From NCBI RefSeq assembly GCF_030013595.1, contig NZ_CP122768.1: 64,000 bases of DNA; one strand, written 5' to 3'. This stretch comes from Escherichia coli (GTDB taxonomy: Bacteria > Pseudomonadota > Gammaproteobacteria > Enterobacterales > Enterobacteriaceae). Shown one piece after another: positions 55,001 through 58,000 of the stretch (position 1 is its first letter; each line of letters starts with the position of its first letter). Made by a program: the position numbers.

Positions 55001-58000
55001 GTACTGTTTTGCAGGATCGTTGTGTCGCTCATATTGTCCTCGTCATTTGTAGGGTCGAGATATTTTTCGTTGTGTTTTATTTCACCTGGCTACGGGCAAA
55101 CAGCTCGTCGAGCTTCTCTTCGTACTGGTAGTAGTTGATGCTTTCGTACAGCTCGTTGCGGGTTTGCATGGTGTCGATGACACTTTTCTGCGTGCCTTCC
55201 TGACGCAGGACGTTGTAGACATGTTCGGCGGCGCGGTTCATGGCGCGAAACGCTGAAAGCGGGTACAGCGCCATTGAGACATGGGCGCTGCGTAATTCAT
55301 CGGTAGTAAACAGCGGTGTTGCGCCAAATTCGGTAATGTTGGCGAGGATTGGCACCTGCACCGCATCGGCAAACTGGCGGTACATGGCGAGTTCGGTAAT
55401 CGCCTCCGGGAACAACATCTCGGCACCCGCTTCAACATAGGCCTGCGCACGCTCGATCGCCGCATCCAGCCCCTCTACCGCCAGCGCATCGGTGCGCGCC
55501 ATGATCACAAAATCAGGATCGGTTTTCGCATCCACCGCCGCGCGGATCCGATCCACCATCTCCTCTTTCGAGACGATCGCTTTGTTCGGACGATGACCGC
55601 AGCGTTTCGCACCAACCTGATCTTCAATATGCAATCCTGCCGCACCGGCTTTAATCATCGATTTCACGGTGCGCGCCACGTTAAAAGCAGAAGAACCAAA
55701 ACCGATATCCGCATCCACCAGCAGCGGCAGCGAACAAACGTCGGTGATACGGCGAATATCTGTCAGCACGTCATCAAGAGTAGAAATACCGAGATCGGGC
55801 AGCCCCAGCGACCCTGCCGCCACGCCACCGCCGGAGAGATAAATTGCCTGATATCCGGCACGCTGCGCCAACAGCGCATGGTTGGCGTTAATGGTGCCAA
55901 CAATCTGCAATGGATTTTCTTTAGACAGTGCAGCGCGAAACGCTTTACCTGGAGAGTGTAGAGACATAGCCCATCCTTTGTTATCAACTTGTTATTTGCG
56001 TTGATAAACACAAAGCAAGGGGTGTGCCACAATTGTCTTAATAAAATTAAATGTTTAATTTCAATTTGTTAGCAATATAGTCATGAAGTAATCCGCAAAT
56101 ATGCGTTTCAGTTAACGTTTCAGGCAATGTTTCACCGCGTTTCATTGCAACAATTATGAAACAAGACTAAACCCAATATTCGGTTTCTTAACTTTGCGGT
56201 GCGCTATGGCACATCCACCACGGCTGAATGACGACAAACCGGTTATCTGGACGGTATCTGTAACGCGCCTGTTCGAGCTGTTTCGCGATATCAGCCTCGA
56301 GTTTGATCATCTGGCGAACATTACCCCTATCCAGCTTGGCTTTGAAAAAGCGGTGACCTACATCCGCAAGAAACTGGCCAGCGAACGCTGCGACGCCATC
56401 ATCGCTGCTGGCTCTAACGGCGCATATCTTAAAAGCCGCCTGTCAGTGCCAGTTATTTTGATTAAACCGAGCGGCTACGATGTGTTACAGGCACTGGCAA
56501 AAGCCGGAAAGCTCACCTCTTCTATCGGCGTTGTCACTTATCAGGAAACTATTCCGGCGCTGGTGGCGTTTCAAAAAACCTTTAATTTGCGCCTCGACCA
56601 ACGTAGCTACATTACCGAAGAAGACGCGCGCGGGCAGATTAACGAGCTGAAAGCTAACGGCACCGAAGCGGTGGTCGGCGCGGGGCTGATTACCGATCTG
56701 GCAGAAGAAGCCGGAATGACTGGAATTTTTATCTATTCCGCCGCCACCGTGCGCCAGGCGTTCAGCGATGCGCTGGATATGACGCGCATGTCGTTACGCC
56801 ATAACACTCACGATGCTACCCGTAACGCCCTGCGTACTCGTTACGTGCTAGGCGATATGCTCGGTCAATCACCACAGATGGAACAGGTGCGGCAGACTAT
56901 TTTGCTGTATGCCCGCTCCAGTGCAGCGGTGTTGATTGAAGGGGAAACGGGGACAGGCAAAGAGCTGGCGGCCCAGGCGATTCATCGGGAATATTTTGCC
57001 CGCCACGATGCGCGACAGGGCAAAAAGTCGCATCCGTTTGTTGCCGTCAACTGCGGGGCGATTGCCGAATCGCTGCTGGAAGCGGAGCTGTTTGGCTATG
57101 AGGAAGGGGCGTTTACCGGCTCGCGACGCGGAGGTCGCGCCGGGCTGTTCGAAATTGCCCACGGCGGTACGCTGTTTCTGGATGAGATTGGCGAAATGCC
57201 GCTACCTTTGCAGACTCGCCTGTTACGGGTGCTGGAAGAAAAAGAGGTCACCCGCGTCGGCGGGCATCAGCCTGTTCCGGTAGATGTACGGGTCATTAGC
57301 GCCACTCACTGCAATCTGGAAGAAGATATGCAGCAAGGACGTTTTCGCCGTGATCTGTTTTATCGGCTGAGTATTTTGCGTCTGCAATTGCCACCACTGC
57401 GCGAGCGGGTGGCGGATATTCTTCCGCTGGCGGAAAGCTTTTTGAAAGTGTCTCTGGCGGCGCTCTCCGCCCCGTTTTCTGCCGCATTACGCCAGGGATT
57501 ACAGGCAAGCGAAACCGTGCTGGTGCAATACGACTGGCCAGGCAATATTCGTGAACTGCGCAATATGATGGAGCGACTGGCGCTATTTTTAAGTGTGGAA
57601 CCGACGCCGGATTTAACGCCGCAGTTTTTGCAGCTGCTACTGCCGGAACTGGCGCGCGAGTCGTCGAAAACTCCCGCTCCACGCTTACTGACACCACAAC
57701 AGGCACTGGAGAAATTTAATGGCGATAAAACAGCAGCGGCGAATTATTTAGGCATCAGCCGGACGACGTTCTGGCGGCGGCTGAAAAGCTGAACTGCCGA
57801 ATGCAGCGCGAACGCTTTATCCGGCATAAATTTCAATAGATGATCACCGATAAACTTACGCATCGGAGATGTTTACATAGGATTCAGAATTACTTCTTCT
57901 TATAAATATTTGCCGTGCCGTGGATCTTATTGTCAGTTTGACCGGAGGTCAGTACCAACACATCAGCCCCTTTTTCATCCGCTTTTTTGATCAAATCTTC

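Follow-up and report, generated by a model that had tools for sequence, protein, structure and literature searches.

The methylcitrate cycle genes prpBCDE of Escherichia coli are divergent from prpR, the gene of their activator. Within the 64,000-nucleotide stretch of E. coli DNA analyzed here (contig NZ_CP122768.1, hereafter the window), prpB is located on the minus strand (55077-55967) and prpR on the plus strand (56206-57792), with a 238-bp divergent intergenic region at 55968-56205 between them. Of 5426 complete E. coli genomes, 5218 contain this intergenic stretch. The limits of prpB and its ATG start codon (55965-55967, minus strand) follow from the open reading frame and from the annotation of an identical E. 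coli locus, which also places prpR. A Shine-Dalgarno sequence, AAGGA, is visible at a distance of 6 nt upstream of the ATG (55974-55978, minus strand), and an A/G-rich block is present at this position in all orthologs. In this study we describe TGTTA direct repeats in the prpB leader that, judging from their sequence and its conservation, form a putative operator for phosphorylated ArcA (ArcA-P) over the prpB start site, between the -12 element of the promoter and the ribosome-binding site. We assign this reading a probability of roughly 55%. The ability of Salmonella and E. coli to catabolize propionate is relevant to gut colonization resistance, and published work names no regulator for the nitrate requirement of prpB and prpC under anaerobiosis (PMC8800556).

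The original prediction for this region was that a close match to the -24/-12 consensus lies about 50 bp upstream of prpB, that PrpR is a sigma-54 activator, and that a palindrome between the promoter and prpB constitutes either a protein site or a leader structure. As a whole it is partly confirmed, with the first two points holding in full. The promoter is an exact match, TGGCACACCCCTTGCT, located at 56014-56029 on the minus strand (read from 56029 to 56014) with its 3' end 47 nt before the ATG, and it is the single exact match to TGGCAC-N5-TTGCW within the 64 kb. Its -24 GG (56028-56027) and -12 GC (56016-56015) doublets are exactly 10 bp apart, as sigma-54 promoters require, and the TGGCA and TTGCT elements are unchanged across 16 Enterobacteriaceae. 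Pfam identifies PrpR_N, Sigma54_activat (E = 1e-65) and HTH_8 domains in PrpR, such that an AAA+ sigma-54 interaction domain is found together with conserved upstream GTTTCA repeats (-102 to -159), as expected of an enhancer-binding protein.

The same promoter is known from experimental work. An identical motif, GTGGCACACCCCTTGCT, is bound by sigma-54 in K-12, where it underlies peak OS01 of a chromatin immunoprecipitation sequencing (ChIP-seq) study that also predicted the +1 position 19 bp past the motif center and 36 nt from prpB (Bonocora et al., PMC4591121). A holoenzyme peak at the same prpB motif was obtained in K-12 by genomic systematic evolution of ligands by exponential enrichment (gSELEX; Shimada et al., PMC8743547), and the homologous Salmonella site was detected by chromatin immunoprecipitation on microarrays (ChIP-chip; Samuels et al., PMC3844500). 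According to papers that cite Palacios & Escalante-Semerena 2000, prpBCDE of Salmonella needs PrpR, sigma-54 and IHF. The sigma-54 promoter of prpBCDE is therefore real and already established knowledge, to which our analysis adds nothing new. The predicted transcription start used below is position 56003 (minus strand), 12 nt downstream of the C in the -12 GC doublet, which gives a 36-nt leader.

The repeats in the leader were first seen as TAACAA-like hexamers on the sense strand, recurring at 11 bp or multiples thereof when the leaders of different species were aligned from the -12 element to the ATG; on the opposite strand these hexamers read TGTTA. An ArcA box consists of two TGTTA repeats spaced 11 bp center-to-center, and most sites occupied in vivo contain three to five repeats at 11- or 22-bp spacing (Park et al. 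2013, PMC3798270). To score such sites we rebuilt an ArcA weight matrix from the 115 readable boxes in Table S3 of that study, whose own scores range between 9.7 and 22.2 bits (median, 16.2 bits), along with a 7-bp single-repeat matrix that was used to map individual repeats above a threshold of 3 bits. The E. coli leader contains an 18-bp ArcA-box-like element, TTGTTATCAACTTGTTAT, at 55978-55995 (plus strand) that scores 16.5 bits. It is composed of two TTGTTAT direct repeats on the strand opposite prpB, with the TGTTA core of the first (DR1) at 55979-55983 (+21 to +25) and that of the second (DR2) at 55990-55994 (+10 to +14). Each repeat scores 8.8 bits on the 7-bp matrix and they are spaced by 11 bp, so that the element has the two TGTTA-type repeats, the 11-bp center-to-center distance and the score of at least 9 bits by which an ArcA box is recognized. 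A weak third repeat, TTGATAA (56001-56007, plus strand; 5.6 bits), has its TGATA core at 56002-56006 and covers -3 to +2, over the predicted +1. Together the E. coli repeats occupy about -3 to +25 relative to the predicted start. On that predicted start they overlap the start site of a carbon-oxidation operon, which is the geometry of a repressor.

The score of this element is high for both the window and the leader composition. Among the approximately 128,000 positions of the window, TTGTTATCAACTTGTTAT ties for second place with TTGTTTCATAATTGTTGC, a match in the upstream part of the same intergenic region, behind the known mhpA box (20.3 bits). Dinucleotide shuffling of the leader attains the score of 16.5 bits in 12 of 5000 randomizations, and shuffling of the full intergenic region does so in 107 of 5000.

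A comparison set of 80 prpB loci was taken from reference genomes. Throughout the Enterobacterales, prpB leaders carry two to four TGTTA direct repeats on the non-coding strand, at about -7 to +31, and the spacing between them is close to one helical turn, mostly 11 bp; gaps of 22 or 32 bp also occur, as do a few copies that are out of phase. Fourteen of 16 genus-level Enterobacterales representatives have a leader box scoring 12.8 to 20.6 bits, values attained by at most 1.5% of shuffles; the genera with such a box include Escherichia, Citrobacter, Kluyvera, Pluralibacter, Salmonella, Pseudocitrobacter, Photorhabdus, Xenorhabdus, Morganella and Providencia. Equivalent boxes in the orthologous loci score about 12 to 20 bits, and the leader box usually ranks between first and fourth among the approximately 11,800 positions of its own locus. 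It is always located on the antisense strand, with sense-strand maxima of -1.6 to 9.7 bits. The sigma-54 prpB leaders of Burkholderiales, a lineage not known to have ArcA, score below 2 bits. These leaders are also less A/T-rich, so that strand asymmetry and shuffling offer a fairer control.

Repeat number and phasing vary among the genera. Morganella psychrotolerans has four repeats exactly 11 bp apart and M. morganii has three, while in Photorhabdus two strong TGTTA repeats are separated by 22 bp and the copy midway between them is a weak TGAAA that stays below the 3-bit threshold. The third or additional repeats are in register in E. albertii, in Morganella (three to four repeats) and in Photorhabdus. 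The Providencia box, ATGTTAATTAATTGTAAT, resembles the icdA box known from footprinting, TTGTTAATGATTTGTAAT. A separate observation concerns Xenorhabdus mauleonii, where a leader expanded to 90 nt upstream of position 2501 of the extracted locus (L047) contains three extra TTGTTAC copies at 17-18-bp spacing; from their sequence these look like a local amplification of the repeat unit.

At the aligned position of DR1 and DR2, a box of 13.7 to 19.7 bits is present in 16 Enterobacteriaceae that represent 10 distinct sequences. All 10 retain the TG.T cores while the spacer between them drifts (TCAAC, TTAAC, TTAAA, GTAAA), and this drift destroys both the palindrome of the original prediction and an IHF-like core discussed below while the box is retained. 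The invariant blocks of the 16-species alignment correspond to the enhancer, to the sigma-54 elements and to the TGTT cores of the two repeats. Correlation of column conservation with the information content of the ArcA matrix gives r = 0.55, with 0.77 one column off and approximately 0.6 at offsets of -10 and -11; this correlation supports the periodicity of the signal without being discriminating. Within E. coli the leader is nearly invariant and is uninformative in this respect, apart from one strain in which a C of the palindrome's 5' arm is replaced by T.

A rival explanation is an A-rich element acting at the RNA level, in which UAACAA (an AAYAA/ARN-type motif) by the Shine-Dalgarno sequence would recruit Hfq or another RNA-binding protein and thereby exert translational control. 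The last copy does adjoin the Shine-Dalgarno sequence in every genus, and in Neisseria prp mRNAs are reported to be under small RNA/Hfq control. We nevertheless regard this explanation as very improbable. In Salmonella, Photorhabdus, Xenorhabdus and Morganella the promoter-proximal copy, often located at -7 to -1, precedes the predicted +1; being outside of the predicted transcript, it favors a DNA element over an RNA motif. The strict 11-bp phasing likewise fits a single face of the DNA helix, and a literature search gave no report of such an RNA element for enterobacterial prpB.

The palindrome is an inverted repeat at 55981-56007 with perfect 8-bp arms at 55981-55988 (TTATCAAC) and 56000-56007 (GTTGATAA, both given on the plus strand) and an 11-nt loop. 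The repeat and its N11 loop are thus present as originally described, but the arms are 8 + 8 rather than 9 + 8 since G55980 faces A56008 and is unpaired. The arms overlie the end of DR1 plus the spacer, and the weak third repeat. Perfect inverted repeats with arms of at least 8 bp and loops of 3-15 nt number 52 in the window (0.81 per kb). When the 238-bp intergenic region is shuffled, at least one such repeat turns up in 181 of 3000 sequences; for the 47-bp leader the count is 11 of 3000. The inverted repeat is therefore mildly non-random, yet it is a common kind of object. Among the 80 prpB loci, only those of Escherichia, Citrobacter and Kluyvera have it, and most of these retain just a 6-bp core.

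If the palindrome acts as RNA, it would form a leader hairpin at the 5' end of the prpBCDE mRNA and make the transcript more stable or alter access to the ribosome-binding site. Whether such a hairpin can form depends on where transcription begins. The predicted +1 at 56003 falls within the 5' arm, leaving only CAAC of that arm in the transcript, and the predicted 36-nt leader folds with -2.4 kcal/mol (z = -0.3 to +0.3). A start at 56005 gives -4.6 kcal/mol, while a start at or upstream of 56008 would provide the full 8-bp stem at -6.8 kcal/mol (z = -2.1), or -10.9 kcal/mol when downstream sequence is included. The 6-bp core ATCAAC/GTTGAT is present in 10 of 12 aligned sequences from Escherichia, Citrobacter, Kluyvera and Pluralibacter, and 73% of cells are paired in alignment A1, a value reached by 0 of 500 column shuffles. 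However, Citrobacter has already lost the two outermost pairs; a G to A change in Pluralibacter and a T to C change in Citrobacter sp. R56 each break one pair without compensation; and the double changes stem from Salmonella and Pseudocitrobacter, where the whole helix is lost or the alignment is doubtful. For the comparison with Salmonella proposed in the original prediction, a homologous sigma-54 site is known there, but of the 8 pairs of the palindrome only 2 are retained. Across 26 orthologous leaders, folding was in no case better than that of the shuffled sequence, and an Rfam scan of 55900-56300 (E <= 1) returned only chance-level matches to HLE and uup. After folding with three alternative starts and across the 26 orthologs, together with the pair counts on alignment A1, the RNA hairpin was rejected as the main explanation and we consider it distinctly unlikely.

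The proposal that the palindrome is a leader structure has little support, with the predicted start inside its 5' arm, a z-score near zero, and a helix that is kept in one clade only and broken without compensation. The alternative proposal that it is a protein site fares better, as a protein site is likely, but the conserved symmetry is that of the TGTTA direct repeat and not that of the inverted repeat. The inverted repeat is most likely a by-product that arises since DR1 and the spacer (TTATCAAC) happen to complement the weak third repeat (GTTGATAA). Two further inverted repeats were noted in passing. A 17-nt imperfect repeat (76%) relates the -12 region (56010-56026) to the Shine-Dalgarno/start-codon region (55965-55981) and would matter only for read-through transcripts from upstream, and Pseudocitrobacter has a comparable 12-bp repeat, CTCTTT(T)GTTGTT / AACAACAAAGAG.

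A different protein that could occupy the leader is IHF or another nucleoid protein, with its site at TATCAACTTGTTA (55982-55994, plus strand). This sequence is a perfect WATCAANNNNTTR core with zero mismatches, expression of prpBCDE requires IHF, and the core is exact in E. coli, E. albertii, Citrobacter, Kluyvera and one metagenome-assembled genome (MAG), whereas no more than 3 of 500 leader shuffles attain it. A related sequence, TTTAATTTCAATTTGTTA, is also present at the position upstream of the promoter where IHF is expected. On the other hand, Pluralibacter, Salmonella, Pseudocitrobacter, Photorhabdus, Morganella and Providencia have 1-3 mismatches, which is the level of shuffled sequence, while the ArcA-type box persists in all of them, and in E. 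coli the core match is embedded in the DR1-spacer-DR2 arrangement. The established role of IHF at sigma-54 promoters is to bend the DNA between enhancer and promoter, whereas the leader site is downstream of the promoter. Better placed candidates exist in the A/T-rich spacer at 56045-56071, which contains three IHF-core matches with one mismatch each (56045-56057, plus strand; 56048-56060, minus strand; 56059-56071, plus strand) and is likely the position of the IHF bend needed for PrpR activation. A role of IHF at the leader itself is therefore distinctly improbable. The 56045-56071 segment falls in a hot spot of variation: nearly all intergenic polymorphism within E. coli is located in the A/T-rich spacer between enhancer and promoter, at approximately 56035-56092 (alignment A2 columns 148-203), with the enhancer, the sigma-54 site and the leader almost invariant.

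Upstream of this spacer is the probable PrpR enhancer (56105-56162, approximately -102 to -159), where GTTTCA occurs four times as a direct repeat (56105, 56117, 56129 and 56139) and once inverted (56157-56162). The fourth direct copy and the inverted copy make up a palindrome, GTTTCAT-N10-ATGAAAC, at 56139-56162. The enhancer blocks TGTTTCAT...TGTTnCAAtgAAAC and GAAACG..CTG are invariant in alignment A1. The second ArcA-box-like match of the region, TTGTTTCATAATTGTTGC (56147-56164, minus strand; 16.5 bits), is located in this enhancer, upstream of prpR. Going by its sequence, it could be an ArcA site that competes with PrpR or represses prpR, or it could simply reflect PrpR half-sites spaced 11 bp apart; it is inseparable from the PrpR half-sites and the enhancer match cannot be assigned. 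The TGTTGCA spacer of the enhancer palindrome is itself invariant in 16 Enterobacteriaceae, which a simple PrpR palindrome leaves unexplained. Additionally, Citrobacter and Salmonella have a tight GTTTCATGAAAC palindrome where E. coli has CATTGCCTGAAAC (alignment A1 columns ~90-112), beside an invariant block, TGAAACGTTARCTG, that we take to resemble a Cra/FruR half-site.

The enhancer also bears on a further explanation of the leader repeats, namely that a different direct-repeat regulator, an OmpR/PhoB-family protein such as PhoP or PrpR itself, binds the TGTT repeats. The PhoP box is TGTTTA-N5-TGTTTA. The ArcA matrix gives 11-16 bits to the PrpR-type TGTTTC-N5-TGTTKC repeats of the enhancer and is thus not fully specific, such that another TGTT-repeat binder is possible at the leader. 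An exact GTTTCAT half-site is found in the Xenorhabdus and Photorhabdus leaders, and an ArcA ChIP signal at prp is unreported. Still, the leader repeats carry an A at the fifth position (TGTTA, TGTAA, TGATA), which is the ArcA signature, and they do not read TGTTT(A) or GTTTCA. For PrpR in particular, a site over +1 to +30 would collide with the very polymerase that PrpR activates. We consider a different regulator of this kind unlikely.

Published data on the locus fit ArcA control. In an arcA mutant prpR is up 2.9-fold, and a box of at least 15 bits was predicted "upstream of prpR", with its position not stated (Park et al. 2013). In anaerobic Salmonella propionate alone induces prpR while prpB and prpC also need nitrate (PMC8800556), and this nitrate requirement is consistent, indirectly, with ArcA control of prpB.

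Several observations weigh against an ArcA operator at prpB. The matrix, as noted, lacks full specificity, and two other boxes of at least 14.9 bits in the window have no known ArcA role. The +1 at 56003, on which the geometry depends, is a prediction only, and the start is likewise listed as "predicted" in EcoCyc. The third E. coli repeat is 12 bp from DR2, or 1 bp out of register, and in a published test ArcA did not bind a repeat whose spacing was likewise longer by 1 bp (PMC4173790); the promoter-proximal repeat of Salmonella is similarly out of phase, at 14 bp. Among the 16 genus-level representatives, Shimwellia and one MAG have no good leader box. None of the tables of Park et al. 2013, which describe glucose fermentation, contains an ArcA ChIP peak at prp, and a search of the Federowicz et al. 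2014 supplements for prpR, prpB, b0330 and b0331 found only prpR, in a regulator-effector metabolite table. The prp genes are absent from a Salmonella ArcA microarray study in which the cultures were uninduced and some were grown on glucose. Literature searches that combined ArcA with the prp genes gave no experimental link. Finally, papers citing Simonte 2017 indicate that the anoxic propionate defect of K-12 was attributed to RNase R.

The start site and the early transcribed DNA are what sigma-54 holoenzyme must engage during open-complex formation, and ArcA represses carbon-oxidation operons. If the leader repeats are an ArcA operator, a reduced quinone pool would lead ArcA-P to bind DR1 and DR2, possibly along with the start-proximal third repeat, and to cover roughly -5 to +28. 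Bound ArcA-P might then stop sigma-54 holoenzyme from forming or clearing the open complex, or it might block elongation. Even with PrpR active, the operon would remain off until the level of ArcA-P falls in response to oxygen or another respiratory acceptor. In its broader form, this model would have ArcA-P in the initially transcribed region gate a sigma-54 promoter at which a closed complex and active PrpR are in place, with transcription proceeding only when an acceptor is available. Such a conserved, Enterobacterales-wide redox check on the detoxification of propionate in the gut would explain, at the level of transcription, nitrate-dependent anaerobic induction in both Salmonella and E. 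coli; we put this broader model forward tentatively, with confidence somewhat short of even.

A conserved ArcA operator over the prpB start would constitute a simple and testable mechanism. It would add a sigma-54 promoter to the carbon-oxidation operons that ArcA represses and could account for the lack of operon expression when no electron acceptor is present. There is also a practical side, as the pPro (PprpB/PrpR) expression vectors and propionate biosensors carry the same leader. If the operator is real, mutating the two TGTTA cores could engineer out oxygen-dependent behavior of pPro vectors.

Additional features of the window and of the comparison set are given here for completeness. 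The mhpA ArcA box, a known site and a member of the training set, is located at 36948-36965 (plus strand; 20.3 bits). Further boxes are located at 22538-22555 and 44205-44222 (both minus strand; 16.1 and 14.9 bits), of which the 16.1-bit box is intergenic, upstream of an open reading frame starting at 22716. A sigma-70 promoter and terminator scan gave no match, and the prpR promoter was not located. A scan for CRP sites returned only matches with three mismatches, at 55997-56012 and 56198-56213, and the published CRP site was not located. In E. coli SCPM-O-B-9504 an IS1A element is found in place of the prpB side and prpR is annotated as a truncated pseudogene, which indicates that the prp locus is disrupted in this strain. 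The nearest sigma-54 motif in Providencia burhodogranariea and P. alcalifaciens BIGb0506 is approximately 190 nt upstream of prpB, a different architecture, and the Pseudomonas and Paraburkholderia loci (L078, L081 and L079) have no sigma-54 motif upstream of prpB.

The closest known system is the icdA P1 promoter (Park et al. 2013; Park & Kiley 2014), where three ArcA repeats on the non-coding strand are protected from -12 to +21, two of them downstream of +1, and all three add to repression (PMC4173790). Like icdA P1, the prpB leader carries its TGTTA direct repeats on the non-coding strand at intervals of 11 bp; in both cases two of the repeats follow +1 and a weaker third one is located at the start site or -10 region. 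The icdA P1 footprint of -12 to +21 compares with a predicted cover of about -5 to +28 at prpB, and it is by analogy with icdA P1 that ArcA-P is proposed to cover the prpB start and early transcribed region. The two differ in that icdA P1 is a sigma-70 promoter at which ArcA binding has been demonstrated, whereas prpB has a sigma-54 promoter, a site that is putative and identified by sequence, and a third repeat that is 1 bp out of register. In its remaining parts the prpB promoter is like glnHp2-type promoters and that of Salmonella prpBCDE, which likewise combine a -24/-12 element and an A/T-rich IHF region with an enhancer located around -100 to -160 and an activator gene in divergent orientation. 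The E. coli promoter is the ortholog of the Salmonella promoter and shows no difference from it, with the leader element being the only addition. Park et al. 2013 predicted a box "upstream of prpR" that shares with our matches the intergenic region and a score of at least 15 bits. That study gives no position, whereas here two matches tie at 16.5 bits, one in the prpB leader and the other in the PrpR enhancer. The conservation of the leader box across genera and its link to the prpB start site are new here.

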